Positions 12,105 through 56,565 of a stretch of 64,000 nt of DNA are shown in pieces. Origin of the DNA: a virus. How positions within the stretch are numbered: position 1 is the first letter of the stretch; the number at the start of each line of letters is the position of its first letter. The DNA is taken from UHGV virus genome UHGV-0112180, one strand, 5' to 3'. The position numbers and the translations under genes were made by a program. Under the pieces are notes generated by a model. It had not been told where the DNA came from, made no database searches, and was given only the letters and a program-made list of their open reading frames with translations.

Positions 12105-12389
12105 TTATGGTTGCTGTAAATGGAGGGGAACAGCCTGTTCTATCATCCCGCGTATCAAGCCAACTTCAAGTAGTTCCTCGTATTCCCAGTATCTGTTTGT
12201 TACCAGATCCAGGCTGGCTATGACCTTGTGCCGGTCATTCGGCATAGCCAATTTTTCTGCTATAACCATCAGTGAAAACTCTTCATCCAGTAGAATTTGA
12301 TAGCAGTTTTTTGATAGTTCCACTTCCCTTATGAGACTGAAACGTCGCTGGATTGTGGCAGCAGAGTAAGTGAAATCTATTTTCTTCAT
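12105..12389 (-). CDS. Hypothetical protein
   Basis: 94-aa ORF; no recognisable motif. Confidence 0.3.
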   Translation of the reverse strand: MKKIDFTYSAATIQRRFSLIREVELSKNCYQILLDEEFSLMVIAEKLAMPNDRHKVIASLDLVTNRYWEYEELLEVGLIRGMIEQAVPLHLQQP

Positions 12390-12448
12390 CGTGCGGAGAA
12401 TCCGGTTATTTAGTAGTTAAAGCCCCGGACAGGCCGGGGCAACAGTAA

Positions 12449-12811
12449 TTAACTAACAATCCAGTCCGTAGCAACAACATCCTCTGGAGCTAAATCAATC
12501 GCATGGATTTTCCCATCCCGGATAGTGCGCCAGTGCTTTCGTGATCCACCTTCGGGCCACACCCATACACCTTCAGGCCAGGATACTCGACGGCATACGA
12601 TTGCATAGCCTGTTTTAATCCTCTCTCTGGCGGTATGCAACGACAGGTTTGCCTTTGGACTTTCAGGCACAGGATGGTGGATTGCCTGAAACATCCCCAT
12701 CTTTGGATGATACCAGCGTTTATTGCGTGGTTCTGCCTCCGACATCACCTGCTTAAAGGCTTTCCGGAAGGGGGGCCATGGCCACAATGGAGCGTCGCGC
12801 AAGCAAACCAT
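12449..12811 (-). pseudogene. Frameshifted 3' continuation of the antirepressor gene (copy 1), fused in-frame to a homologue of the small ORF that follows copy 2
   Basis: PPFRKAFKQVMSEAEPRNKRWYHPKMGMFQ parallels SPFMNAFNRMMSEAEHRGKRWYHPKMGQFQ at the end of 51363..52070; the tail VCRRVSWPEGVWVWPEGG parallels VCRRKVWSVGVWAWPDNY of 51166..51366. Confidence 0.3.
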
Positions 12812-13391
12812 CGGGAGTTAAAAACTCATGCGTATCGGTGGGAATCCGGAAAGCGTTAACCAGGTTGCGGCATTTGGCTTCAGTCAGGCCACATTTCGCC
12901 GCCAGCTGGCGGTAGCCAATGTAGCCTTCCGGAATATTGCCTTTCTTTATTTGCTCGAGTGTTTCAGCGACCATCGATACTTGTGCTGATACCTCGGCTA
13001 CCTGGGCATTTACGGCGTTGATCCGGCGTTCATGCTCAAGATGCATTTGCGCCATTTCAGCCAGAATTTCGGCTTTTGATTTTAACTGTACCCGGGCATT
13101 CTCCAGTTCGCGCCAGCGGTCCACCAGCCGGGCGGTGAATTCGGGAGAGAGCTGCGCGACGACGACAATACTATCGCGCTTGCCTTGCTCGCCTTCGAAG
13201 AAATAGGCTTTTGTGTATTTATTAGGGCTAAGTGATTGATTATTCTCAACTGTAGCCAATGGCGTATGTTGGATAACTCCTTTAGCAACAAGTCTTTCGA
13301 TGCTGCGTTTAACATCAGAGTGACGACTTCCCACCAGTTCCGCGATCTCAATGCTGGTCATTGTCGCTTTTTGAGAGATGGACAGATTCAT
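12753..13391 (-). CDS. Rha-type phage regulatory protein / antirepressor-like (copy 1; C-terminus altered by frameshift relative to copy 2)
   Basis: MTSIEIAELVGSRHSDVKRSIERLVAKGVI N-terminus and FEGEQGKRDSIVVVAQLSPEFTARLVDRWRELE core, near-identical to copy 2. Confidence 0.55.
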   Translation of the reverse strand: MNLSISQKATMTSIEIAELVGSRHSDVKRSIERLVAKGVIQHTPLATVENNQSLSPNKYTKAYFFEGEQGKRDSIVVVAQLSPEFTARLVDRWRELENARVQLKSKAEILAEMAQMHLEHERRINAVNAQVAEVSAQVSMVAETLEQIKKGNIPEGYIGYRQLAAKCGLTEAKCRNLVNAFRIPTDTHEFLTPDGLLARRSIVAMAPLPESL

Positions 13392-13606
13392 CAGTGCACC
13401 TCCACGCAGTTCATTGGCAGATTCCAGTAATTGAGGATCTCCATCGCATCAAGAGTGAAGCGAGCAGCAAAAATGCAGGGTTCTTCGGGAAGGTATGAGC
13501 GCGCCTCTGCTTCGGTAGCAGCCATTACGCAGATATAAAGGTGTTTTTGGCAGGAATAGAAACGCCAGATAAATTCAGAATGAGTTGGGGTAGGGATAGT
13601 AGCCAT
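13391..13606 (-). CDS. Icd-like small protein (P1 immI icd position, copy 1)
   Basis: 71 aa, EFIWRF...AATEAEAR motif; stop overlaps the ant start; AAGGAGG ribosome-binding site. Confidence 0.5.
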   Translation of the reverse strand: MATIPTPTHSEFIWRFYSCQKHLYICVMAATEAEARSYLPEEPCIFAARFTLDAMEILNYWNLPMNCVEVH

Positions 13607-13918
13607 ATTGGCAGCCTCCTTTGACTAAGTTAAGGAGCTACCGCGTGAGGTTCCAATCTCAATGGCGGTAGCACTGACTGGGTTGGAACTACCGGCGTCA
13701 AAGGGAACCGGCCTGCCTTTCGGCAGCCCAGCCAGCACTACCATTGATCTCTGAGCTAAACGCTAAGTATGGCTGTGCGATGGCATGACACAAAAAAAGA
13801 CGCGTTCGGCGTCTGTGTCGCCTTTGACATTATCCGGGGTTCCAATCCCGGCACCCGTTTTTCTAAGGTGCCGTAGAAATATACCCCACGATAATGCCAG
13901 GGCGCAACAGTCAGTATT

Positions 13919-14086
13919 TTATGCTTTGGCGGATTTCTTCCGGGCTTGCTTGCAGGCGTAGGCCATTGCTTTAGCTTTCACTTCATCCAGCTTCCCGGTG
14001 ATCACTTCTTTTCCGAGAGTGACAAACCAGTCATAGCAACCGCCAGTAATGTTCTTGATTTGAAAGTTGAGGTAGCGAACAGTCAT
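13919..14086 (-). CDS. Small basic protein (55 aa), hypothetical
   Basis: Read from sequence: MTVRYLNFQIKNITGGCYDWFVTLGKEVITGKLDEVKAKAMAYACKQARKKSAKA; below the ORF-track cutoff. Confidence 0.3.
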   Translation of the reverse strand: MTVRYLNFQIKNITGGCYDWFVTLGKEVITGKLDEVKAKAMAYACKQARKKSAKA

Positions 14087-14417
14087 TTTGACACCCCCAG
14101 CGCGAGTAAAGAATGCAGATTATCGCGTGAGTGGTGGACGACGAGTGATGGGAAAAGACTGTAGTTGTTCATAGTGTAGTGACTCCTTGCTTTCGGAGCC
14201 GCCATCGACTGTTCCACGGTCTGGTGGCGGCGCAATAAAGGCTGGAACACCGTGAGTCAACGGGGGCTTTTCAGCCACCTATATTGCACCGCCATAGGTA
14301 TGGCGGCGGCAATAATACGAAAAACTAAACAGTTTGTCTCAAAAAGTTGACCGGTGTGCCAATCGGTAGTGAATGTACATCGGTGAAATTCACAATTCAA
14401 CTTAAAATGTTAGAAAA

Positions 14418-37212: not shown

Positions 37213-37288
37213 TGGTGGCCCCTACCGGACTTGAACCGGTGACCGTGCGATTATGAGTCGCCAGCTCTAACCACTGAGCTAAGGGGCC
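37213..37288 (-). tRNA. tRNA with CAU anticodon (Ile2/lysidine-type, ileX-like; Met not excluded)
   Basis: GGCCCCTTAGCTCAGTGGTTAGAGC...GACTCATAATC...GGTTCAAGTCCGGTAGGGGCCACCA; 7-bp acceptor stem, canonical D and T arms, encoded CCA. Confidence 0.8.
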
Positions 37289-37297
37289 AATTAGTTT

Positions 37298-37411
37298 TTA
37301 TTTTCGACGCCTGAGATTCTTCGCTACTTGTTCTACTCCGTATACGATCACAAGCAGAAATAGCAAAGACCATCCAGGGTTCTTATCAATATACGTCCAA
37401 AAATCCATCAT
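37298..37411 (-). CDS. Small membrane peptide (37 aa), tci-operon member
   Basis: MMDFWTYIDKNPGWSLLFLLVIVYGVEQVAKNLRRRK; start overlaps upstream stop (ATGA). Confidence 0.25.
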   Translation of the reverse strand: MMDFWTYIDKNPGWSLLFLLVIVYGVEQVAKNLRRRK

Positions 37412-37572
37412 GAGTTCCTGAACGCAGCTTTAATAATCGGCAATAGCAATACCACAGCTACTGAAACCAGTGCCCCATCAGCCAACACCGACATCACTTT
37501 GCTGGTGAAATCCACCAGCACGGACAAAACGAGAAAACCAATGGCGCACGCAATACGCGCCTTGCCAATCAT
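37408..37572 (-). CDS. Small membrane protein (54 aa), tci-operon member
   Basis: MIGKARIACAIGFLVLSVLVDFTSKVMSVLADGALVSVAVVLLLPIIKAAFRNS; start overlaps the TerB-like stop (TAATG). Confidence 0.35.
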   Translation of the reverse strand: MIGKARIACAIGFLVLSVLVDFTSKVMSVLADGALVSVAVVLLLPIIKAAFRNS

Positions 37573-38006
37573 TACAGATAATCTTCCACACGAAGGCCCA
37601 AACGACGGCCTACTTCTTCCAGTACTTTGTGTTCTGCTGGCTCGATTTCACCGTCCGCTTCTGCAATCGTCAGCATGTTAACGAATACTTCTTCCGCTTC
37701 TTTTGGATCATTTTTGATATCTTCAATTTCGCGAAGGATATTCATGCGACCAACACGGAAACCAGCTTCCAGTTGCTCAGTAAAACGGGTGATTGTTGCG
37801 GTAATTTCGTTGCCAAAATGACTTAAGCGAGGATTAGAGCGGACAAGCTGATCAAGTTTCGCTGTTTCTTCCTTTTCGATTTCACCATCTGCGGCAGACA
37901 CCAACAAACAGCCACCGATAATGGCCTCCATCAGATCGCGATTCTCAACCCTTTTCAGCTCTACTTTTGCTGAAGCGACTTTCTTACCGAAAAATTTACC
38001 GAACAT
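37572..38006 (-). CDS. TerB-family tellurite-resistance-like protein (P1 TciA analogue)
   Basis: Two AADGEI / AEADGEI TerB-type repeats in a 144-aa protein. Confidence 0.65.
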   Translation of the reverse strand: MFGKFFGKKVASAKVELKRVENRDLMEAIIGGCLLVSAADGEIEKEETAKLDQLVRSNPRLSHFGNEITATITRFTEQLEAGFRVGRMNILREIEDIKNDPKEAEEVFVNMLTIAEADGEIEPAEHKVLEEVGRRLGLRVEDYL

Positions 38007-38273
38007 TGGTTATCCCTCAATAAACATGACGTATTTATTAGGTTGCGGTGCCTGGTGCCTCCAGGTGACGTTAACCAGTTAACAATTAACGCCGGGATGT
38101 TTGACTTAACCACTAAGGAGGATTGTTTTAACTGTTCCGCGTGCGCATAGCCGCATTCACCGCAATGGTAAGAGCACTTGGCTGGCTGGGCGGCGATGAC
38201 GCCTGTACGCATTTGGTGATCCGGTTCTGCTTCCGGCATTCGCTTAATTAGCCAAATACTCTTAACGTTGCAC

Positions 38274-38360
38274 TGGCGGAGAGTAATGGAATCGAACCAT
38301 CATCGCTTGCGCAATGGGACGGTTTTCAAGACCGTTTGAGCACCATGCTCCCTACTCTCC
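38274..38360 (-). tRNA. tRNA-Ser(UGA)-like, type II with long variable arm and atypically short D-loop (possible pseudo-tRNA)
   Basis: Acceptor GGAGAGT/ACTCTCC + G + CCA; anticodon arm ACGGT-CTTGAAA-ACCGT; T-arm GATGG-TTCGATT-CCATT; D-loop only about 5 nt. Confidence 0.45.
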
Positions 38361-38462
38361 AGTGATTGTGATGGTCGGTGCTGAACTCCGACACAGGGTT
38401 GTAGCAAGCCCCGCAAAGCGCGCACTACTGTAGTTGCGGCACATCAGCCTGTGCATTCACCA

Positions 38463-38552
38463 CAATGTTGAGAACACTGGTTGTCACGCTGCAACGCAAC
38501 ATTTATTCGTAGATTGGGATATGACCCCGTTACGCCAGTGTTCTCAACGTTG
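38463..38552. repeat. Hairpin element of the tRNA-array repeat family (18-bp near-perfect inverted repeat)
   Basis: CAATGTTGAGAACACTGG ... CCAGTGTTCTCAACGTTG with about 55-nt loop. Confidence 0.45.
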
Positions 38553-38690
38553 TAGTGCCGGTTACGGTTCCGGCCAGGCCTCTTCCTCAACGGGGTGTTC
38601 TCCATACGGACTACCGTTTATTGGTCGTTCCTGCGGTTTATGTTGTGAAGCCAGATGCTTATCTTCTGGTTGCTTCAAAGAGCTGCACTT

Positions 38691-38770
38691 CATCACAACG
38701 GTAAGAGCACTCGATGCATTTAAGCCAAGCCCCATAAGGGAGAATGCCCTTACCTGTTGTGTTGTGATGA
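38691..38770. repeat. Hairpin element of the tRNA-array repeat family
   Basis: CATCACAACGGTAAGAGCAC ... GCCCTTACCTGTTGTGTTGTGATG. Confidence 0.45.
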
Positions 38771-38884
38771 CCGGTGCTGATCTCCGGCTTGCGGTTATTT
38801 CAGACTCTCACGGGCGTTTATTTGCCCCGCCGAACAGCTCTTTTCCGCAATAGCTGCAATGTCTTTCGCGCATCAGCCTGCGCA

Positions 38885-38977
38885 TTCATCACAACGGTAA
38901 GGGTACTTCGTAGGGATTCGAACCCTCTGCCAAGCACGGCGATCTCCGACGTCGCAAAATACCCTTACCTGTTGTGT
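38885..38977. repeat. Hairpin element of the tRNA-array repeat family; interior carries a tRNA T-arm-like GGGATTCGAACCC
   Basis: CATTCATCACAACGGTAAGGGTAC ... TACCCTTACCTGTTGTGTTGG, ending immediately before tRNA-Thr. Confidence 0.45.
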
Positions 38978-39054
38978 TGGTGCCGGTTAACGGACTCGAA
39001 CCGCTGACATCCTGCTTACAAGGCAGGCGCTCTACCAACTGAGCTAAACCGGCA
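38978..39054 (-). tRNA. tRNA-Thr (UGU)
   Basis: TGCCGGTTTAGCTCAGTTGGTAGAGCGCCTGCCTTGTAAGCAGGATGTCAGCGGTTCGAGTCCGTTAACCGGCACCA; perfect acceptor and anticodon stems. Confidence 0.8.
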
Positions 39055-39057
39055 ATT

Positions 39058-39144
39058 TGGTGGGGAGTGATGGAGTCGAACCACCCGAGTCGCAATGACA
39101 GTAGATTTACAGTCTACCCCGCTACCCCTACGGACTAACTCCCC
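39058..39144 (-). tRNA. tRNA-Tyr (GUA)-like, type II
   Basis: Acceptor GGGGAGT/ACTCCCC + A + CCA; anticodon arm GTAGA-CTGTAAA-TCTAC; long variable arm; D-arm somewhat atypical. Confidence 0.55.
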
Positions 39145-39149
39145 TGAAT

Positions 39150-39226
39150 TGGCGATGGTGGGTGGATTCGAACCACCGACCGACAGCTTAGAAGGCTGCT
39201 GCTCTATCCTACTGAGCTACACCACC
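39150..39226 (-). tRNA. tRNA-Arg (UCU)
   Basis: GGTGGTGTAGCTCAGTAGGATAGAGC...CCTTCTAAG...GGTGGTTCGAATCCACC...GCCA; anticodon loop CUUCUAA as in argU. Confidence 0.75.
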
Positions 39227-43659: not shown

Positions 43660-46600
43660 TTAGGCCGCATCGGCGATTATTTTACGCAGTTCATCTACCG
43701 AGTAACGCGTAGATACCATCCATGCAGGACGGTCAAAGTTCACATCAGCAACCGGGTTTGCTTCAAAATTCCAGAAACGCCCGCCAATCTTCTTAATCGC
43801 GTCTTTGGCGTTCCGTATTGTCGAGGAACCTGGCTGGTCGGCAATGAGATAAACCGCGCCAACGTCTTCGCTGACGCTCCACCAGCGCCCGCGAACACGC
43901 GCCTTAGCGCGAATCGGCTTATCATTAACCACAATGATATAGTCATCATTCGCCGCTTCATCAGCTCTTGCTTCAGCCACTGCCGCCTGCTCTTCTCTTT
44001 TGCTTTCAGCCTGCTCAAGCCTTTTCGCGATCTCTGATTCAGTGGCCCCGCCGTTTTTCAGCGATACATAGTCCTGCCACGTTGCCGATTTGAGCGCATC
44101 CGGCAACTCATTCACATAGTCGCCGTCTTTCAACTCACGGGCGCGACGGGTAGCCATTTCTACCAGGCGATTAACAGAAACAGCATCAGCAAAATCGTCC
44201 TTACTAATGTGTTTTTCATCAAATGCATTGATGACAGCCCCAACCTTAATCCACTGTGCTGCCGGTGATTCCAAGGGGTTATCAGCCTGAACAATGGCGA
44301 GTTTCGCTCCATCTACCCCATTATTCGCCAGCTGTTCCAATGCCGCCCATCCATCTGCATCACTGAGTGATTTATATTGCTCAAACAATGCATCGCGCCA
44401 GGCCACCAGCGCAGAACGTGTTTTTTCGATCTTCGCCTTAATTTTCGCGATCTTGACCTGATTAAACATCCGTTCAATATCATCGATATTGCTAAAGGCT
44501 TTCATCCTGCCCTGGAATAAACGGTATGCCAGCACGGTCCTCCAGAATGATTCCAGACCTTCTCCGGACGGTTTACGGAACAAGCTAAGAATATCTTCAG
44601 AAGTGACTTTATTAAGCGAACGACCTGACAGACCACGCCCAGCCATCCAGTTTTCGAACTCCTGGGCAACATCATCCATCGTTGCTTGTGCGCCCCATGC
44701 CTGCATTCCCTGGATGTAATCATACCCATACAATGCCTGGAGGAATCCCTCTCCGTCCACGATATTCAGCGGATTATCACTGGCTTGTATTTTTGCCACT
44801 TCACGCTTCAGCGCCTCATTGTTGATATCAGGGTAAATCCACTGCTCTGGTGCAATATCCGATGTACGCCCGATTTTCTGTCCTATCATGCCATCATAGG
44901 TCGATGACAGCGCGATCTGACCATCATCTGTGCGATAAGCCCAGTATTTAATAGCTGACCCACCGCCCCATGCATTACCAGGTTTACCAGCAATAACATT
45001 CATTACCCCATTGCGAATAGCATCATAGAACTGATCGCGAGTAAGTATTGTTGATAGCTGGTGGCACTGAACACCACGCGCAGCCGTTGCGCGCGATTCA
45101 GCTACCCCCTCTTCAAAAGTTACCGCTTCAATCACAGAGTCAAACGGCAATGTAACGATTGACCCCGGTGCTCGAGCGTAACGACTTGCTCTATCCAGCC
45201 AGGCGATACGGCAGAGGTATTGTGCTTTTTCACCGTCAATTTTTTCCACCCGGACAATCGCTGTTGTTTCGCGATCATCAATGACTGCACGGTAATAACT
45301 ACCTTTATGCAACAGGATATTCTTGTCAGTGCGCATATATTCCTGTGGGTTCTGAATAACATCGATACTGATATCCAGCACACCAGACTTAATAGCGCGC
45401 TCCACATCACCACGAGAGCGTTTCATTATGGTATCCGCGTCTTTTGCCCTGGTGATCGCAAACCGCAGCACCCGCGCACGTTTTCTGTAGCTACTCAACT
45501 GCTCAAGCGCGTATTTTTGCCCATTCCTGTTCGTACCCGCTTTTATCAGGTCGTCAAGATTGCGCTGGTAATACTCTATCTGTTCCATCGCGCTTTTCAG
45601 TTCTGTCTCCATCATGCCGATATCTTTTCCGGCGGCGTTTGCCGCTTTCAGGTAGATATCGAGAGCATTGTTGGCCTCGCGCTGTGCTTTCAGTTTCAGA
45701 CGTTCTTCACGCTCTTGCGCCTGGCGAGCCATGATTGCGCGGCGTTCTTCCGGGTTTGCCGCCAGCATAATGGCGCGTTCATCAGCATCATCCGCATCAC
45801 CATTGGCGATCTCTGACATGTCGGAGGTCATCACCATCTTGATCCAATCTTTCTTACGTTTCAGCGTATCCAGACGGAAGTCGTCGAATGTGCCTTTGCC
45901 ACAATAGTAGTGAACATTGACCTTCTCTTGCGGTGAACCTACGCGCGCACCGCGCCCATTTCGTTGGTCGATACTGGCTGGTGTCCAGGGTAGTGTCAGG
46001 TGGTGGATATCGGTTGTCCCGATGTGCAGGTTAATACCTACTTCAGCCTTCTTGTTACAGATTATGATACGCGTGCGACCTTCGTTATAGTCGGCGGCAA
46101 TACCTTCCATGCCCTCAAGGCCAGCATCATTTTTAGCTGAGAGATAATCCTCATATTGGGCAAGTTTGCTGTAGTAGGTTTCCCATGCCCCTTCTTTGTA
46201 TTCACCGTTTTTGTTTGGAGTAGGTTCGGTCGGCTTATTCACCTTCTTCAGCTTGATGCCGCCAGCCTGGCTAACTGTCGTTGCATTGATAATGCCAATC
46301 TCCTGCTCCGGCATTTGCAGTGCACTGGCGATAATACGGCGCAGCTTCTGGTGCTGGGCTTTTTCATCAATAAAGACGATCTGCTTACCGTTCTTCAGAC
46401 CTTCACGAAGATTTTCGATCAGCGCGGCATACTTCGGCGGGATGGGGTGCGATACCTGCTGCATATCAATACCGGCAGCCGCAATGGCCTTAAGTATTTC
46501 AGCTTCCAGTTCAATGCTGGCACGTATTTCAACATGCGTCGGATGTTCACTAAAAGCGGTCTTCACTACCTTGCTGGTACGCGTACTGACCAGCCCGCCA

Positions 46601-49600
46601 GCGCCGTCTTCCTCGGCCTCATCAACATCATCTGCCACTTTACCGCCAGCTACTTTTGGCAAGGCATCAGCAATAGCTTTTACCTGGTCTGCAAGCTCAA
46701 CGGGGAACTGGAATGTAATCGCACTGGCATACAGATCCGGGTCTATAGCAACCTTGTCCATGTCACGGATGATGGAGAAGATGAAATCATCCGGTTTGTC
46801 GTTAGTGATATGCCCGTTTTCATCGACTGTCAGCTCATCATTGCGACTTAACTCCTGAGCACGCTTACGAAGCTCTTCATAAGCAGTCTCCTGCTCCCCT
46901 GTCATCGGGATCTGCAAGGTGTTCTCAATGATGTCGGGAATTTTAACCGTTGCTCCGACATCTGCAGCAGTCTTCAGAGTGGTCCAACGATGGAAAATAC
47001 CACGCAGGCCGTCAAGGTTCTGGAAGCCCACCAGCCCCTGCTTCTCTTCCACTTCCCCGGAAATTTTCTGGACCTGAACTGTGGCTGTTTTGCCAAACAC
47101 ACGAACGAAATCATCAGGCGTAATGATGCCCATGCGCATCCACTCTTCCTGCGGAATGACAGTAGACAGCATGTTGAAGGCATCAATCGGACTGTTCACC
47201 AGCGGAGTTGCCGTCAGCATGACTACACCACGCCCGTTGTTGCGTTTCATCATGTACGCAGCTTTTACAGCCATGTCGCGGGCCATCTTGGATACTGCCG
47301 GGTTAGGCAAATATGCCAGTTGTCCCGCTTCACGCCCGGCATTAAAGGAGTTGCGGTAGTTATGCCCCTCGTCGGCAATCACGCTATCGAAGTTCATATC
47401 CTCAAAGTACGGGATATTCTGCTTCTTCGTTGTACCGGTATTCGCGGCCTGATCCTTAATCTTGTTCTTCTTCTGCGCATCACGGTGTTTACCGGACGCC
47501 AGGTCAAGACGCCCCATTTCCACAGCATTAAAGACAGCTTGCTGTGAGTTCTCCTCGATGGTTTTTTCTCGTAGCGGGATAGACGCGAATTGTTCTTTTG
47601 TCATGATGACCGTTCGCCAATTTGACGACGGGATCATGTTCATGCGCTGAACGATAACGGCGCTGGCGGACTCTTTCACAACATTTCTGGTAAGAGGCTG
47701 CCCGTTACTGTCGAGGCGTGGTTCGCCATTTTCATCAAGCACCGGCGCGGTCAGAATATTTCCGCTGTCATCACGAACTTCATCCAAACCGATAAACATC
47801 ATATTGGCGAAGGCATCAGCACTGTAGAAACTCTGTGCCTCGTGATACCAGTTCTGATAAACCGCCTTCGGAACAACAATACACGTGCGTTTAGTGCGAC
47901 CTGTTTCGAAGTTATACGCCTCAAGCGCAAGCGCGGTCGTGGTTTTACCCAGCCCGGTACCAAATCCCATGATGCCGCGCCCATCTTCTGACAAGCGCCG
48001 AACTTCTTCATTCTGATAAGTAAGAGGAATGCGCTTTCCACTAAGCCCTTCCAGGCCAAGCGGTGCGTCAGAATGCGTGAACGGAATGAAACCATTGAAT
48101 GCGTCGTTATACTCGCGGGCTATCTGATCAGCCTGCGGGTGAGTGCGTAACCAGTCGTTAAAACTAACTTCCAGTTGAGCAATTTTATCCAGGTACTCGT
48201 TAGCGTTCTGCCCACGCGGTTTAACACCGTTCAGGTAGTTTTCTAACTGGTTCAGGAAGCCGTCTTTATTGTTGGCCTTCTTGAACTCATTCCCGTTTTT
48301 GCCGTTTACGGTTCGTAGCTGATAGCCGGTAAATACCCCGTCCTTACCTTCGTAATCGTCCGGAGATACCAGAATGCCATCGACGACCTTCAGATCAGGT
48401 TCAGTGTACTTAAACTCGTCATAGCCCTGCTCTGCCAGGAACTCTTTTATCAAGCGGCGATCCAGCCAGCGGGCATTCAGATTAACGGTGACTTTATTTA
48501 GTGGCGTGAAAATACGTTTCTCTTCGATTTTCGCCAACTGACGCTCAAAGTTCGCTTTCTGCTCACCTGTTGACGCATCACGCCAGCCCATCAGCAATGC
48601 TGTTTTGGTTGCAATATCGCCGCTGGTGGCGCGGTCCATCGGCAGCAGGCAGCCATACCCATCAATAGCGATATCATCAAATTTCGCCAGGTATTCAAGG
48701 GCCGCGTCGTCGTCCTCTGGCAGTTCACCAGCAAACGCCTCACGAAAGTCTCCCAGCGTTATAGGATTAAGGGCTACATCACTGAAAAGATGTGCTATCA
48801 CTTGTTCAGGACGTGTAAAGTCAATACCGGCAGCACCATCCGTTACATCAAGTCGCCCTGCCAGAAGGTCAGAAGTGGAACCATCCTGTTTCACATTGCC
48901 AGTGAACGTCATCCAGTTTTTAGCGCCAGCTTCAGCAAGCCCATTCAGCTTAATGGCGTGCGGTGGCCCATACTTCGCAACTTCTGCTGCCGCCAGGCGG
49001 GATGCATCTGCCAGTTTGTCATCAACGTTCACACCCAGGTTACGCAAATCAAGTGCCTTGTTGATCAACTGACCTATCAGCGCACCGCGCATAACGCGCT
49101 CCCTGTCTTTTTCTCGCTGCTTGCCAGCAAAGCGAATCATTGCTGCCACTTCATCACTGACAACCGATGGATAGTCGGACGCGATCGCCGATATCTGGTC
49201 CCATGACAAAGCCAGAATCCCGTTTGTTGACTGGAACGCGATCTGCAGATCGCCAAACGTCGAAACACCATATCGACTTACATCAAGCGCGGAGGATTTG
49301 GTTGTCGTGTCCTTAACCCATTTCAGACCATCAAACTCATGCCAGATACCGCCTACAAGGCGTTTATCGCCCACTTTCGCGCCCTGCCATGCCTGAGTAG
49401 TTACGCCGAGCAAATCCCAATTGATGCGACTATCAAAGCGACGAGATAGCGCGGTTTTCATCGACTCATTGGATACACGACCGTCTTTTTTCACCACCAG
49501 GGTATTGCGGAAGCTGGTACGTTCCATGTCGCCGTAAACAAATCGCTTCCCTTCGGTTGTAAACCATTTTCCTTTGAGGAAGGTATCCCAAAGGACGTTT

Positions 49601-50496
49601 GCCGATTTGAGTGTTGAATCATCCGTGTCGGGGATCATCTCCAGGAAGGTTTCCGGGTGTTTACGCAATACCCATACGTCCACCACGGTATCTGTACCGG
49701 ATTCGCTGAACGTACCGGAAGGCATACGATGTGCGCCCAAAAATTCCGCTTTACGGCTGACTTTATCGCGCAATTTTTTATATTTCGCACCATCGGTCAT
49801 GCCATTTGGCACCACCAATACGATAAGCCCACCAGGCTTAACCTTGTCGATCGTGCGCAGCACAAAGTAATTGCCAACGTTCTTCTCGTTTGCATATGCC
49901 GGATCAAGCCCGGCAACGCCGGAACGCCCTTCACCAAACGGTACGTTACCAACAGCGTGGTCATACATTGCATCTTTCGCCGCCAGCGCCTCAAACGCCC
50001 CGATATTCACATCGTCTTCCGGGTGCAAAAGCTGGTTTATTCGACCAGAAATCGGAGACAGTTCGGCGCTGGTCATTATCATGCCCTGCCGTTTTGTCTC
50101 CTGGAAAATACCTGTGCCCGCTGATGGTTCCAGTACGTGCCCGCCATCAATACCGTAGTCAGCAAACAGATCCCATATACCTTCAGCCATAAACTGTGGC
50201 GTGTAGTATTCGTATTGGCTGCCCTCACCATCTGTCAGGCCGCCTTCACCGGTATACCCAGCAAGAATCTGACGTTGTTCGTCAGTTAATTTCGCCCCAT
50301 CGAAGCCGGGCGGAAGGGAATTAAGAAGATTTACTGCGGCATTGTTTGCTGCCCGGCGTGTTTTCTGAATACTGACGCCATCGGCTTTCCTGACGCCAAA
50401 GGTCGCAACAGCACGTAATTTATGCAACCGACTAACAATTTCAATCAGTTCGCCTAAGCTGGAGGCTTCACTGATTGAATGAAGTAGTTTGTCCAA
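43660..50496 (-). CDS. darB: DarB-like giant methyltransferase-helicase (P1 defence-against-restriction type)
   Basis: 2278 aa; N-terminal N6-adenine MTase motifs (VLEPSAGTGIF, GNVPFG); DExH helicase motifs (GTGLGKT, VIADEGHNYRN); size matches P1 DarB. Confidence 0.8.
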   Translation of the reverse strand: MDKLLHSISEASSLGELIEIVSRLHKLRAVATFGVRKADGVSIQKTRRAANNAAVNLLNSLPPGFDGAKLTDEQRQILAGYTGEGGLTDGEGSQYEYYTPQFMAEGIWDLFADYGIDGGHVLEPSAGTGIFQETKRQGMIMTSAELSPISGRINQLLHPEDDVNIGAFEALAAKDAMYDHAVGNVPFGEGRSGVAGLDPAYANEKNVGNYFVLRTIDKVKPGGLIVLVVPNGMTDGAKYKKLRDKVSRKAEFLGAHRMPSGTFSESGTDTVVDVWVLRKHPETFLEMIPDTDDSTLKSANVLWDTFLKGKWFTTEGKRFVYGDMERTSFRNTLVVKKDGRVSNESMKTALSRRFDSRINWDLLGVTTQAWQGAKVGDKRLVGGIWHEFDGLKWVKDTTTKSSALDVSRYGVSTFGDLQIAFQSTNGILALSWDQISAIASDYPSVVSDEVAAMIRFAGKQREKDRERVMRGALIGQLINKALDLRNLGVNVDDKLADASRLAAAEVAKYGPPHAIKLNGLAEAGAKNWMTFTGNVKQDGSTSDLLAGRLDVTDGAAGIDFTRPEQVIAHLFSDVALNPITLGDFREAFAGELPEDDDAALEYLAKFDDIAIDGYGCLLPMDRATSGDIATKTALLMGWRDASTGEQKANFERQLAKIEEKRIFTPLNKVTVNLNARWLDRRLIKEFLAEQGYDEFKYTEPDLKVVDGILVSPDDYEGKDGVFTGYQLRTVNGKNGNEFKKANNKDGFLNQLENYLNGVKPRGQNANEYLDKIAQLEVSFNDWLRTHPQADQIAREYNDAFNGFIPFTHSDAPLGLEGLSGKRIPLTYQNEEVRRLSEDGRGIMGFGTGLGKTTTALALEAYNFETGRTKRTCIVVPKAVYQNWYHEAQSFYSADAFANMMFIGLDEVRDDSGNILTAPVLDENGEPRLDSNGQPLTRNVVKESASAVIVQRMNMIPSSNWRTVIMTKEQFASIPLREKTIEENSQQAVFNAVEMGRLDLASGKHRDAQKKNKIKDQAANTGTTKKQNIPYFEDMNFDSVIADEGHNYRNSFNAGREAGQLAYLPNPAVSKMARDMAVKAAYMMKRNNGRGVVMLTATPLVNSPIDAFNMLSTVIPQEEWMRMGIITPDDFVRVFGKTATVQVQKISGEVEEKQGLVGFQNLDGLRGIFHRWTTLKTAADVGATVKIPDIIENTLQIPMTGEQETAYEELRKRAQELSRNDELTVDENGHITNDKPDDFIFSIIRDMDKVAIDPDLYASAITFQFPVELADQVKAIADALPKVAGGKVADDVDEAEEDGAGGLVSTRTSKVVKTAFSEHPTHVEIRASIELEAEILKAIAAAGIDMQQVSHPIPPKYAALIENLREGLKNGKQIVFIDEKAQHQKLRRIIASALQMPEQEIGIINATTVSQAGGIKLKKVNKPTEPTPNKNGEYKEGAWETYYSKLAQYEDYLSAKNDAGLEGMEGIAADYNEGRTRIIICNKKAEVGINLHIGTTDIHHLTLPWTPASIDQRNGRGARVGSPQEKVNVHYYCGKGTFDDFRLDTLKRKKDWIKMVMTSDMSEIANGDADDADERAIMLAANPEERRAIMARQAQEREERLKLKAQREANNALDIYLKAANAAGKDIGMMETELKSAMEQIEYYQRNLDDLIKAGTNRNGQKYALEQLSSYRKRARVLRFAITRAKDADTIMKRSRGDVERAIKSGVLDISIDVIQNPQEYMRTDKNILLHKGSYYRAVIDDRETTAIVRVEKIDGEKAQYLCRIAWLDRASRYARAPGSIVTLPFDSVIEAVTFEEGVAESRATAARGVQCHQLSTILTRDQFYDAIRNGVMNVIAGKPGNAWGGGSAIKYWAYRTDDGQIALSSTYDGMIGQKIGRTSDIAPEQWIYPDINNEALKREVAKIQASDNPLNIVDGEGFLQALYGYDYIQGMQAWGAQATMDDVAQEFENWMAGRGLSGRSLNKVTSEDILSLFRKPSGEGLESFWRTVLAYRLFQGRMKAFSNIDDIERMFNQVKIAKIKAKIEKTRSALVAWRDALFEQYKSLSDADGWAALEQLANNGVDGAKLAIVQADNPLESPAAQWIKVGAVINAFDEKHISKDDFADAVSVNRLVEMATRRARELKDGDYVNELPDALKSATWQDYVSLKNGGATESEIAKRLEQAESKREEQAAVAEARADEAANDDYIIVVNDKPIRAKARVRGRWWSVSEDVGAVYLIADQPGSSTIRNAKDAIKKIGGRFWNFEANPVADVNFDRPAWMVSTRYSVDELRKIIADAA

Positions 50497-51133: not shown

Positions 51134-51136
51134 AAA

Positions 51137-51164
51137 AAGCCCCGGCCAGGCCGGGGCATCACGC
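51137..51164 (-). terminator. Rho-independent terminator (minus strand)
   Basis: On minus strand GCCCCGGCC-TGG-CCGGGGC followed by TTTTTT. Confidence 0.5.
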
Positions 51165-51165
51165 T

Positions 51166-51366
51166 TCAAGTCACGATCCAATCATTACCGACTATATCAG
51201 CCGTCGATAAATCAACTTCCCGGATCTGGAGTCCATTAATACAAAACCATCCGGTAGTAGAGTAATTATCAGGCCAGGCCCATACACCAACACTCCATAC
51301 TTTACGGCGGCACACTTCAGCCTGTCCTTCCCTGATTTTTTTTACCGCCTGCATGATGTCCATCAC
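51166..51366 (-). CDS. Small protein downstream of ant (copy 2)
   Basis: 66-aa ORF overlapping the ant stop; homologous segment is fused in copy 1. Confidence 0.35.
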   Translation of the reverse strand: MMDIMQAVKKIREGQAEVCRRKVWSVGVWAWPDNYSTTGWFCINGLQIREVDLSTADIVGNDWIVT

Positions 51367-52070
51367 TCACCTCCCCAACCGATCACCTGGAATTGCCCCA
51401 TTTTGGGGTGATACCAGCGTTTTCCTCGGTGTTCAGCCTCCGACATCATCCGGTTAAAAGCATTCATGAAGGGAGATAAGGCCACGATTGAACGACGCGA
51501 CAATACCCCCTCTGGAGTTAAAAACTCATGCGTATCTGTGGGGATCCGGTAAGCGTTGACCAGGTTGCGGCATTTGGCTTCGGTCAGGCCGCATTTTGCC
51601 GCCAGCTGGCGGTAGCCAATGTAACCTTCCGGCATGTTGCCCTTCTTGATTTGCTCGACGGTTTCTACCACTTGGCTAACCTTTGACTCAACAACATGAA
51701 GCCGCTTTTGCTGCTGAACTGCATTTGCAGCCATTGCGGCGATCATCTCTATTTCGGTCAACGGCTGGCGTGCTTGTTCTTCCAGTTCGCGCCAGCGGTC
51801 CACCAGCCGGGCGGTGAATTCGGGAGAGAGCTGCGCAACGACAATAATGCTGTCTCGTTTGCCTTGCTCGCCTTCGAAGACGTAAGCCTCGACACTACGG
51901 CGTAGTCCTAAGTTATTGATTTTTTCGAAAACCTGCAATGCAGGAAGTTGAATAACTCCAGATTTAGCCAGGCGCTCTATTGATATTTTTACGTTATCTG
52001 GACGACTTCCCACCAGCTCCGCGATCTCAATGCTGGTCATTGATGGCTTTTCAAGAATGCAGATATCCAT
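51363..52070 (-). CDS. Rha-type phage regulatory protein / antirepressor-like (copy 2, intact)
   Basis: MTSIEIAELVGSRPDNVKISIERLAKSGVI and FEGEQGKRDSIIVVAQLSPEFTARLVDRWRELE; single 235-aa frame. Confidence 0.55.
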   Translation of the reverse strand: MDICILEKPSMTSIEIAELVGSRPDNVKISIERLAKSGVIQLPALQVFEKINNLGLRRSVEAYVFEGEQGKRDSIIVVAQLSPEFTARLVDRWRELEEQARQPLTEIEMIAAMAANAVQQQKRLHVVESKVSQVVETVEQIKKGNMPEGYIGYRQLAAKCGLTEAKCRNLVNAYRIPTDTHEFLTPEGVLSRRSIVALSPFMNAFNRMMSEAEHRGKRWYHPKMGQFQVIGWGGE

Positions 52071-52294
52071 CAGTGTGCCTCCGCAATTCCGGGATTGGTA
52101 ATATTGCGATACCAGGGATTAGTGTTTGGTTGTGGGGAAGTAGAGAAACGACCAGTAAGAACACCATGCTGATCAGGGATCAGAGAACGGGCTTCTTTTT
52201 CGGTTGCGGCAATTGCGAAGTGATCGCAGTGTTTTTGCAGGGAGTGGAAACGCCAGATGAATTCTGGACGTGAGCAAGGATTGGCATTAACCAT
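52070..52294 (-). CDS. Icd-like small protein (copy 2)
   Basis: 74 aa, EFIWRF...AATEKEAR motif; stop overlaps the ant start. Confidence 0.5.
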   Translation of the reverse strand: MVNANPCSRPEFIWRFHSLQKHCDHFAIAATEKEARSLIPDQHGVLTGRFSTSPQPNTNPWYRNITNPGIAEAH

Positions 52295-52707
52295 AGTTAC
52301 GGCCTCACTAACAGGTTTAACAACCTGCTACCCGCTGTCAAACAGGTGGCAGGACGTGACAGGGTTGACAGACTGGCGTTAGTGAAACCAGCAGGCCGAA
52401 GCCTCCCCATCACGCCCCACCATAATTCGGGCGTAACGCGGTTTACGGACACAAAAATACCGCAATATCGGAAATCTGCGGTTGTCCGCACTAACATTCA
52501 GGCTGTCAAACCTGGTCGCAGAATTTGCTACGACGGCATGAATATAAGCCTGAAAACATGGAAGATCAACTAAAAATTTCAGCAATGGATGACTTCAGTC
52601 GATGATGCAGATCATACATTCCGATTTAGAAACAGCAAATTAATTTTCTAACACAGATTATCGAGCGAGCATTTTCCGATCATTGGGATGTTTTGTAGAC
52701 ACACAGG

Positions 52708-54882: not shown

Positions 54883-56565
54883 TTAATTGCTCATCACAAA
54901 TTTTGCAAAGTTTATTAACTGTTCTGGCGTCCAGTTTTCCGGATCGTCACCGGACGACAACGGCGCGGATTCGTACATACCATGCTCGCTGTTTTGCTCT
55001 GATTCATTCGCCTTAAACTCTTTGATCATGGTGTTGAGAGTGTCATCGTCGATGTGCAACTGCTCGGTGAACAGATAACGCATAAACGCGTCACTACCAG
55101 CCAGTTTCGGGTTGTTCTGGATCTGGTCCATAATTTGGGAGATGACAGCAACAAAGTTGGCGCGTGCATCCAGTTCTCGGTTTTCCTCTTCCTGGATAGC
55201 AGTGTTCATTGAGTTGAATTGCACGTCATAAGGGCGGTTTGTTTCGGTGTAAACCTTGCCGTATTTATAAGCGAGGTGAATGTCCAGAAGCCGATAAATA
55301 GTTCGCTGGGCGGCCTGTCTGATCCAGTTCGCACGCAATGCAGCCTGGATAGCAGTTTGCTGCCAGCCGCCTTCTCCAAGCCCTCCGCTCATCTGATCAG
55401 CCCAGCCAAGCATTGTTGCGTCAATGCCGAGGCTTGCAGCAAGCTGCCGGAGGTGAAACATAACGTCTTCGATACCACTGATATCTGCGGGTATGGATTG
55501 CGTATCAATGGTGATGCCGTTCTTCCCGTCTCCCATAACAGGTATCAGATGGTTAAGCACAGTCGGAATAGCGTTAGCATTAATCGACCTTTGCGCCACC
55601 AGGTCACTATGACGCTTCAATGCCTGGCTGACGCCACGCGTATAGTTCGCCGCATTAACCGGGTCCAGTGTGTTCGTCGTAAGAGCAATCAGGCGGTCAA
55701 TTTTGGCTGCATTATTTCGCGTTGATTTCAGCGCGGCGAGCGAAGCACATAAATTAAGGTAAGGTTCATAGCTGTATTCCAGGAATGAAGTTCCGTAATT
55801 CTGCGTCTCCATTAACGGCTTATCAGCCTGATCACTTAACAGTGAGTACCCTTTTGTGCCGTAGCTAACCGGAATAACTTTATGCTGTGGCGTCCAATAG
55901 GGATTTTTCATGGAAACCAGATTCCACGGTTCGGTTATTACTCTGCGCAAACTATGCGTATCCAGGATGTAATCACCACTGAATCCAACCAGCTGGCTAC
56001 CGCGATAAAATTCCTGGACGAAATGTGGCAGAGTGTAATAACTGGACTCAATGCCTGTTATCCCCCTGCCCTGTTCAGCATAAGGTCGGACATAAGACAC
56101 CCCAAAGATCGCCATGATCATGGCCCATGAAGGAAGTCCGTCATTAATCATCGCCCCCAAATCAGCGGTTAACTCTTCACATCTACTTACTGCCTCGGCA
56201 TCGGAACCATCCTTTGGCGAAAGGATGAATGCCTGTCCGGTTTTTTTTGAAGGCGCAAGCGCATGTGCAATGTGAATGTTTAAAGCCGTCGAGATAGTCG
56301 GGCTTTTAGCCATCGTTTCCAGGATGTTGTACTTTTGCAGGCGCTCGCCGGGCAGTTCAGCGGATAAAGAAATTGAATCTGCCTCACTCGTCATGCCATC
56401 GCTATTGCTCCCCAGGATGCCTGGACGTAAAGCAGACAGGCCGGAACGAGCAACGACACTATGTCCGCTCGTAAAAACGACCGGATCGGCGGGCGTAACA
56501 TCACCACCGTTGAAGGCTTTCTTCAATGCTGACAGAAAGCCTTTATTTTTGTCTTTCGTTGCCAT
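54883..56565 (-). CDS. Putative portal protein (P1 prt position)
   Basis: 560 aa; size and position only. Confidence 0.35.
   Translation of the reverse strand: MATKDKNKGFLSALKKAFNGGDVTPADPVVFTSGHSVVARSGLSALRPGILGSNSDGMTSEADSISLSAELPGERLQKYNILETMAKSPTISTALNIHIAHALAPSKKTGQAFILSPKDGSDAEAVSRCEELTADLGAMINDGLPSWAMIMAIFGVSYVRPYAEQGRGITGIESSYYTLPHFVQEFYRGSQLVGFSGDYILDTHSLRRVITEPWNLVSMKNPYWTPQHKVIPVSYGTKGYSLLSDQADKPLMETQNYGTSFLEYSYEPYLNLCASLAALKSTRNNAAKIDRLIALTTNTLDPVNAANYTRGVSQALKRHSDLVAQRSINANAIPTVLNHLIPVMGDGKNGITIDTQSIPADISGIEDVMFHLRQLAASLGIDATMLGWADQMSGGLGEGGWQQTAIQAALRANWIRQAAQRTIYRLLDIHLAYKYGKVYTETNRPYDVQFNSMNTAIQEEENRELDARANFVAVISQIMDQIQNNPKLAGSDAFMRYLFTEQLHIDDDTLNTMIKEFKANESEQNSEHGMYESAPLSSGDDPENWTPEQLINFAKFVMSN

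Follow-up and report, generated by a model that had tools for sequence, protein, structure and literature searches.

The window, as we call the whole 64,000-nucleotide stretch of virus genome UHGV-0112180 that was analysed, contains at positions 12419-13907 of its minus strand what is very probably a P1-style immunity I (immI) module of a D6-like plasmid prophage, in which the antirepressor gene ant has been broken by a genuine and recent insertion of one C. Positions 12200-14300 are 100% identical to the Escherichia coli plasmid pF16EC0589-1 (CP088384.1; human blood, Korea; strain F16EC0589) and share 94.9% nucleotide identity with phage D6 (NC_050154), a near-identity from which the window is read as part of a D6-like plasmid prophage. 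PLSDB holds 92 plasmids with at least 80% of the stretch 12200-14300. Judged from its sequence, the window is a D6-like E. coli plasmid prophage carrying two immI modules, referred to below as copy 1 (the module at 12419-13907) and copy 2. In P1-type immI, RNase P cuts the C4 antisense RNA from its precursor, and blocked translation of icd leads to premature termination before ant. A first-pass annotation, made from the letters without database searches, had likened copy 1 to P1 immI; the likeness holds for the C4 RNA, its a and b target sites and icd, and fails for the antirepressor, which is of the Rha/ORF6N type and is no homologue of P1 Ant1/2. The kind of system is the textbook c4-icd-ant of P1 and P7, already noticed in D6-like plasmids, while the allele survey, the link with IsrK and the description of the frameshift as a recurrent natural allele are added here. 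Indeed, one immI-related region (c4, icd, antirepressor) and a second region (c4, icd) have been reported in a D6-like Salmonella plasmid (PMC6799933).

C4 RNA, leader and genes of copy 1

The features of copy 1, listed in the order in which they would be transcribed, are the following.

13878-13907, minus strand: promoter-like site read from the sequence (-35 TTGCGC, 18-nt spacer, -10 TATATT), ending 6 nt upstream of the first base of the leader
13793-13871, minus strand: IsrK-type leader RNA with a1 and b1 (Rfam isrK RF01394, 61.3 bits, threshold 50)
13838-13849, minus strand: target site a1, core UUGGAAC at 13839-13845, in the loop of leader hairpin 2; complements C4 a' GUUCCAA
13821-13828, minus strand: target site b1, GUCAAAGG, in the leader linker; exact complement of C4 b' CCUUUGAC
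13791-13814, minus strand: intrinsic terminator between leader and C4 (hairpin 13798-13814 plus U7; terminator scan, isrK alignment, fold)
13661-13748, minus strand: C4 antisense RNA gene (Rfam RF01695, 77.1 bits, threshold 45, E 2.4e-13, model positions 1-87 of 87)
13649-13660, minus strand: target site a2, core UUGGAAC at 13650-13656, exact motif
13618-13625 (13615-13625 including the Shine-Dalgarno sequence), minus strand: target site b2, GUCAAAGG, overlapping the icd Shine-Dalgarno AAGGAGG at 13615-13621
13391-13606, minus strand: icd-like gene, 71 residues (NCBIfam NF033153 phage_ICD_like, E 3.3e-13; phrog_1426, E 4e-41)
12753-13391, minus strand: 5' part of ant, Rha/ORF6N-type, 212 residues (Pfam Phage_pRha PF09669, HTH_24)
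12770-12775, minus strand: C6 homopolymer (G6 on the plus strand), site of the +1-base frameshift; C5 in most relatives
12449-12769, minus strand: 3' part of ant in the shifted frame, with a conserved segment (FRKAFKQVMSEAE...), a linker and a C-terminal domain of ~65 residues at 12449-12649; phrog_7385
12419-12440, minus strand: terminator-like GC hairpin at the end of the module (fold -15 kcal/mol), conserved after copy 2 (51136-51160)

The covariance-model search suggested in the first-pass annotation reports C4 (RF01695) in both modules, with 77.1 bits for copy 1 and 68.8 bits for copy 2 against a threshold of 45. The copy 1 C4 has a minimum free energy of -46.5 kcal/mol (z = -5.0 against shuffled controls), and the copy 2 fold has z = -4.7 against such controls. 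By homology with the P1 annotation, mature C4 would span about 13664-13742 in copy 1. Its b' segment (CCUUUGAC, 13697-13704) is located in the loop of the second hairpin, and its a' segment (GUUCCAA, 13683-13689) in the adjoining single strand. The complementarity is exact, over 7 nt between a' and both a1 and a2, and over 8 nt between b' and both b1 and b2; this exact-motif comparison replaced a whole-length RNAduplex calculation of C4 against leaders and untranslated regions, which unfolds the entire structure and was uninformative. The b2 site is contiguous with the AGG of the Shine-Dalgarno sequence AAGGAGG, 8 nt upstream of the icd ATG. The twofold motif GGTTCCAATC(T/C)C, placed at about 13647 and 13845 by the first-pass annotation as a possible mark of a c4-like RNA, does occur in two exact copies, which are the a1 and a2 targets of C4, but at 13649-13660 and 13838-13849, 189 bp apart. 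These are its only two plus-strand matches in the window, and the sole match with one mismatch elsewhere in the window is a tRNA T-arm. The second repeat, b1/b2 (GUCAAAGG), had been missed.

Upstream of C4, the leader reaches the score of isrK, a family of Hfq-binding small RNAs, and folds as two hairpins at its 5' end, followed by a single-stranded linker and a Rho-independent terminator. The site at 13878-13907 may be the promoter of the module; its geometry and position match those of the isrK promoter of Salmonella Gifsy-1 in the alignment. Downstream of C4, Icd is identical to P1 Icd at 39 of 72 residues, and the icd stop overlaps the ant ATG (TGATG, at 13391). In its intact form, Ant matches phrog_63, 'anti-repressor Ant', from end to end (E 1e-61).

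Of note, in the source record and its relatives PGAP annotates a coding sequence (CDS) of 39 residues, named 'ash family protein', at window positions 13625-13744 on the minus strand. It starts at the first AUG of the C4 RNA, crosses the C4 gene and stops directly before b2, and is probably the translation of an RNA gene. This CDS corresponds to 'orf45' of Gifsy-1, for which tagged-protein evidence has been reported (PMC4825925).

The frameshift in ant

Phage D6 and four related plasmids have C5 at the homopolymer and encode a single intact Ant of 313 residues. With C6, as in the window, Ant ends at residue 212 of 313 and the remaining 106 codons lie in the +1 frame, which stays open to 12449. 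The first-pass annotation had noticed this shift of frame near the 3' end of ant; it resides in the C6 run at 12770-12775, and when the nucleotides of the two copies are aligned, the extra base falls in the same run. It had also proposed that the shifted frame fuses to a homologue of the small open reading frame (ORF) that is separate in copy 2. The homologue is real, since the C-terminal ~65 residues of Ant share 40% identity with the copy 2 small ORF (BLASTP, E 5e-17), but the fusion is not created by the frameshift. As D6 and nearly all relatives show, the 313-residue fusion is the normal and common state, and the frameshift is what breaks it: the C6 allele detaches the conserved segment and the C-terminal domain from Ant.

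The C6 allele is rare among the records inspected and recurs in independent ones. Among the 60 PLSDB plasmids listed of the 92 matches, only the source record spans 61 rather than 60 bases at the site, and none of the 60 RefSeq records listed has the 61-base span. In IMG/VR, 3 of the 17 contigs that contain the site have C6. One of them (L068), from an independent metagenome, aligns with the window over 14,714 bp at 99.81% identity, showing 28 mismatches and 0 gaps; a second metagenome-derived contig (L080) belongs to the same sublineage as the window, while the ant gene of the third (L028) differs from that of the window by ~97 positions per kb and, 8 nt upstream of the run, carries another base. 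In the RefSeq plasmid NZ_CP077453.1, whose ant gene PGAP labels 'frameshifted', C6 stands on yet another local haplotype, the third. The local haplotypes with C6 are therefore at least three in number (ATGG-C6, CTGG-C6 and CTAG-C6), and the IMG/VR loci together with NZ_CP077453.1 overturn the idea of a frameshift private to the source record. Taken together, these sequences point to a real, recent allele with at least three separate origins, and make a sequencing error unlikely. The frameshift is most likely a recent mutation at a slippage-prone site that would weaken or abolish the antirepressor; a minority of D6-like plasmids would thus carry a broken antirepressor, which could affect their inducibility.

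It is unlikely, to our judgment, that the tract is put to use, C5 and C6 being the two states of a reversible slippage switch, or C6 still being expressed through +1 slippage at CCC-C or through re-initiation at a downstream AUG, the latter turning the fused gene into a two-protein arrangement like that of copy 2. The origin of C6 on at least three local haplotypes would be in keeping with such a use, as would copy 2 itself, where a translationally coupled ORF of its own naturally encodes the homologous domain. Every C6 carrier also keeps the downstream frame open, and the new UAA is followed by GCAGGUG-AUG (12743-12755), an in-frame AUG 7 nt after the stop that would permit residual expression of the detached part. 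However, recent events would likewise leave the downstream frame intact, six bases are short for a contingency tract, and C6 is rare, at ~1-2% of complete plasmids besides the 3/17 IMG/VR contigs. Moreover, the gene is not split where copy 2 is, the split takes away a segment that both Ant paralogues conserve, and the site is without a stimulatory signal for programmed frameshifting. A programmed ribosomal frameshift site was rejected, the great majority of relatives having C5 and one continuous ORF, and the two-frame form being a rare derived allele.

That the extra C is a sequencing or assembly error, namely a homopolymer miscall, and that the plasmid encodes an intact 313-residue Ant, is improbable; a sequencing error had been named by the first-pass annotation as what would refute its reading. 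The change is indeed a single base within a homopolymer, C6 is present in 1 of the 60 listed PLSDB records (the source itself) and 1 of ~75 listed RefSeq E. coli records, and the nearest complete relative, NZ_CP047663.1, has an ant haplotype identical to that of the window (0 single-nucleotide polymorphisms, SNPs) yet with C5. Against this, C6 recurs in independent datasets, including the two metagenome-derived contigs of the window's own sublineage; L068 shows 28 SNPs over 14.7 kb but no gap, and therefore both assemblies agree at every homopolymer there. Compared over 16 kb, the window and NZ_CP047663.1 show no uncompensated indel other than that in ant; therefore the assembly is not error-prone, and a general assembly problem was ruled out on this ground.

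In NZ_CP047663.1, RefSeq calls the intact 313-residue Ant a pseudogene ('incomplete; missing C-terminus'; 55227-55937, L008 5227-5937) and annotates its first ~237 codons only. The label seems to be an artefact of annotation, due to the unusual fusion at the C-terminus, and because of it the PLSDB tables have no gene there.

Allele-matched recognition sites and related modules

An exact-pattern scan of IMG/VR with the conserved first C4 hairpin returned 70 loci, which with the window and further loci gave 75 D6-type stretches containing both flanks. Two alleles of each recognition sequence segregate among these 75 sequences.

a alleles: allele 1, UUGGAAC; allele 2, UUGAGAC
b alleles: allele 1, GUCAAAGG; allele 2, GCAAAAGG

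All four combinations of a and b alleles are present (25, 24, 18 and 7 sequences), and in 74 of the 75 the alleles in the leader, in C4 and next to icd match one another for both a and b, a concordance that counts sequences and not independent events. The alleles differ by two-base changes at each of the six complementary sites. Phage D6, for instance, carries UUGAGAC as its a allele and GCAAAAGG as its b allele, both unlike those of the window, and its C4 is altered to match. Such two-base changes, in register at three places and in four combinations, would be hard to explain without pairing. Three-way complementarity is also found, with unrelated sequences, in P1 and copy 2 (UUGACAG, GUUAGUG) and in Gifsy-1 (UUGGCG, UCACCG). 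It is hardly credible, then, that the repeats are leftovers of a duplication around C4 with no role in RNA pairing, C4 being only structural or a relic: duplication can yield direct repeats around a gene and the a1 allele is discordant at one locus, but the repeats complement both exposed C4 segments and change in step with them, two bases at a time, in all sequences but that one, and the equal three-way complementarity of P1/copy 2 and Gifsy-1 involves entirely different sequences. The four compensated two-base allele combinations, at three sites each, support pairing of C4 with the upstream a1 and b1 as well. To our knowledge, the role of the a1 and b1 sites in P1 is unsettled.

The following mechanism is proposed for copy 1. 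The promoter at ~13878-13907 would start a transcript whose first 79 nt form the IsrK-type leader, with a1 and b1, ending at its own terminator, while transcripts that read through would carry C4, a2 and b2, then the translationally coupled icd and ant. C4 would be released from the read-through transcript and pair through a' with a2 and through b' (CCUUUGAC) with b2 (GUCAAAGG). The overlap of b2 with the icd ribosome-binding site would keep icd untranslated, and because Ant synthesis depends on icd translation, the antirepressor would stay off and the prophage lysogenic. The upstream a1 and b1, releasable as a short leader RNA, probably compete for C4 and so would tune or relieve repression in the manner of Gifsy-1 IsrK. 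Directly visible in the sequences are the fold of C4, the six complementary sites and their covariation among relatives, the terminator, the family match of icd and the overlap of its stop with the ant start. How C4 is processed, where transcription ends within icd and what Ant acts on are modelled here on the P1 and Gifsy-1 work, and by the same analogy we infer that the copy 1 leader can act as a C4 decoy.

Several points weigh against the overall reading of an immI module with a genuinely broken ant. In a consensus promoter scan, the site at 13878-13907 falls below threshold, with a poor -35 hexamer. The terminator between leader and C4 implies that C4 synthesis needs read-through, which is assumed from Gifsy-1. 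In P1 a C1 operator, Op51, overlaps the promoter. The P1 C1-operator consensus, ATTGCTCTAATAAATTT, has no match at up to 3 mismatches in the window, although this consensus is that of P1 and may not be that of a D6-type C1. BLASTP of the intact 313-residue Ant against P1 Ant1 gives E 0.21, hence no homology to Ant1/2, and the target of Ant is taken from family names alone. The one exception among the 75 sequences, L051 (IMGVR_UViG_2778261639_000014), combines an a1 UUGAGAC with an a' GUUCCAA and an a2 UUGGAAC; discordant at a1 only, it indicates that a1 pairing is not absolutely required. L051 may be a recombinant between leader and C4, and would be a natural test of how important a1 pairing is. 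Lastly, a systematic miscall of the homopolymer in the C6 records retains a small probability.

With these reservations, a broader view of the D6-type immI can be put forward only tentatively: it would be a three-RNA switch and not a two-part antisense system, in which the leader, freed at its own terminator as an IsrK-like small RNA, is an anti-antisense RNA that soaks up C4 and licenses Ant, with independently recombining a and b sites giving at least four immunity types that do not cross-react among plasmids otherwise nearly identical, and with the recurrent C5-to-C6 slip as a second, genetic off-lock.

The organization of copy 1 is that of P1 and P7 immI (c4-icd-ant1/2), with a promoter, a1, b1, C4, a2, b2 on the icd ribosome-binding site, icd and a coupled antirepressor. 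The C4 folds of P1 and copy 1 belong to the same Rfam family, and in both P1/P7 and copy 1 short a and b sequences, which vary between heteroimmune relatives, determine specificity. The recognition sequences are different, UUGGAAC and GUCAAAGG in copy 1 as compared with UUGACAG and GUUAGUG in P1. In addition, the leader of copy 1 matches the isrK model and not c4-a1b1 as for the P1 type, and its Ant is a Rha/ORF6N-type protein with an extra C-terminal domain instead of a homologue of P1 Ant1/2. Every RNA-level feature of P1 immI that was tested is found in copy 1, as is icd, and the likeness fails on antirepressor homology only.

The isrK-'orf45' (STnc1160)-anrP region of Gifsy-1 also resembles copy 1. 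It has a two-hairpin IsrK-type leader with its own terminator and an a1-like site in the loop of hairpin 2, followed by a C4-scoring RNA and then by an antirepressor gene with a b2-like site on its ribosome-binding site. In contrast to copy 1, Gifsy-1 is devoid of icd, C4 standing directly before anrP, and its recognition sequences are UUGGCG and UCACCG. The Gifsy-1 C4 (NC_010392, L009 34131-34214, minus strand) is full-length, scores 69 bits and is located between isrK and anrP; therefore the 'orf45' region and STnc1160 correspond to C4, which ties the Salmonella IsrK/'orf45'/AnrP system to the C4 family. Rfam isrK (no clan) and c4-a1b1 (clan CL00128) match one and the same element of Gifsy-1, and the two families appear to describe a single RNA class. 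From this overlap and the C4 before anrP it follows that the published IsrK experiments (PMC4825925) concern a homologous module. In that work, the IsrK terminator is partially read through and the long transcript is processed to a stable RNA of ~80 nt (Hershko-Shalev et al. 2016, PMC4825925). Supplied in trans, the short IsrK strongly activates anrP translation, a result accompanied by compensatory mutations of the paired positions, and the C4 region was read as the translated 'orf45' and likened to the P4 CI RNA, P1 c4 being uncited (PMC4825925).

A further close module is that of phage D6, orf82-orf86, with 94.9% nucleotide identity over the whole module, a gene order equal to that of copy 1 and an Ant encoded by one ORF of 313 residues with C5. 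As D6 carries the alternative a and b alleles, it follows by P1/P7 logic that D6 and copy 1 should not cross-repress, and near-identical D6-like phage-plasmids of E. coli and Salmonella may differ in immunity type. The D6 record has no C4 or leader annotation; instead, a plus-strand orf84 (L001 2960-3259), a 'hypothetical protein', spans both and is probably a spurious CDS. Three annotation artefacts recur: an 'ash family protein' is called on C4, the intact Ant fusion is taken for a partial pseudogene, and neither the leader nor C4 is annotated.

Copy 2 and the C-terminal domain of Ant

The second module, copy 2, spans 51166-52547 on the minus strand.

52495-52547, minus strand: c4-a1b1 leader
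52342-52427, minus strand: C4
52070-52294, minus strand: icd
51363-52070, minus strand: ant
51166-51363, minus strand: ORF of 65 residues

Its leader matches Rfam c4-a1b1 (RF03163). From a1 through the seventh codon of icd, 237 nt (52274-52510, minus strand) are identical to P1, and therefore the plasmid carries a C4 of P1 specificity beside the D6-type C4. This D6-like plasmid should consequently hold down the immI operon of an incoming P1, and copy 2 should in turn be repressed by P1. The remainder of the copy 2 icd and its antirepressor are not P1-like. The antirepressors of copies 1 and 2 are paralogues, with 73% nucleotide identity in the core, and neither resembles P1 Ant1. In copy 2, the antirepressor of 235 residues is followed by the separate 65-residue ORF, whose ATG overlaps the ant stop and which has a good Shine-Dalgarno sequence. 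An ORF of 66 codons (52297-52497, minus strand) has its AUG inside the copy 2 b1, reads through C4 in a different frame and ends 2 nt upstream of the icd ATG; it may be due to chance.

The C-terminal domain of Ant and the copy 2 small ORF form a very narrow family. At default thresholds Pfam and NCBIfam return no match for either, a word-indexed homologue search reports 3 close matches only, and an exhaustive HMMER search of representatives only 5. The sole Pfam match of both is PF11195 (Tad2-like/DUF2829), end to end and below threshold (10.9 and 14.5 bits against a cut-off of 25; E 0.05 and 0.7). Foldseek places the Thoeris anti-defence protein ModTad2 (9eib_A) as the top PDB match of an AlphaFold model with a pLDDT of 65, at a non-significant E of 0.77 (TM 0.45), and short BLASTP matches link the domain to a Tad2-family protein of a sister plasmid; a profile search against PDB sequences did not find Tad2. 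A Tad2-like (Thoeris anti-defence 2) nature of the domain is therefore a lead only. Elsewhere, the sister plasmid encodes two proteins with a clear Tad2-like domain, one labelled DUF2829 and the other Thoeris anti-defence Tad2 family.

Adjoining copy 2, an ORF of 2278 residues (43660-50496, minus strand) bears the label 'SNF2-related protein' in the sister plasmid and is reminiscent of P1 DarB in size and position. The window also contains a cluster of four tRNA genes identified by Rfam (37216-39226, minus strand), as do P1-family phages.

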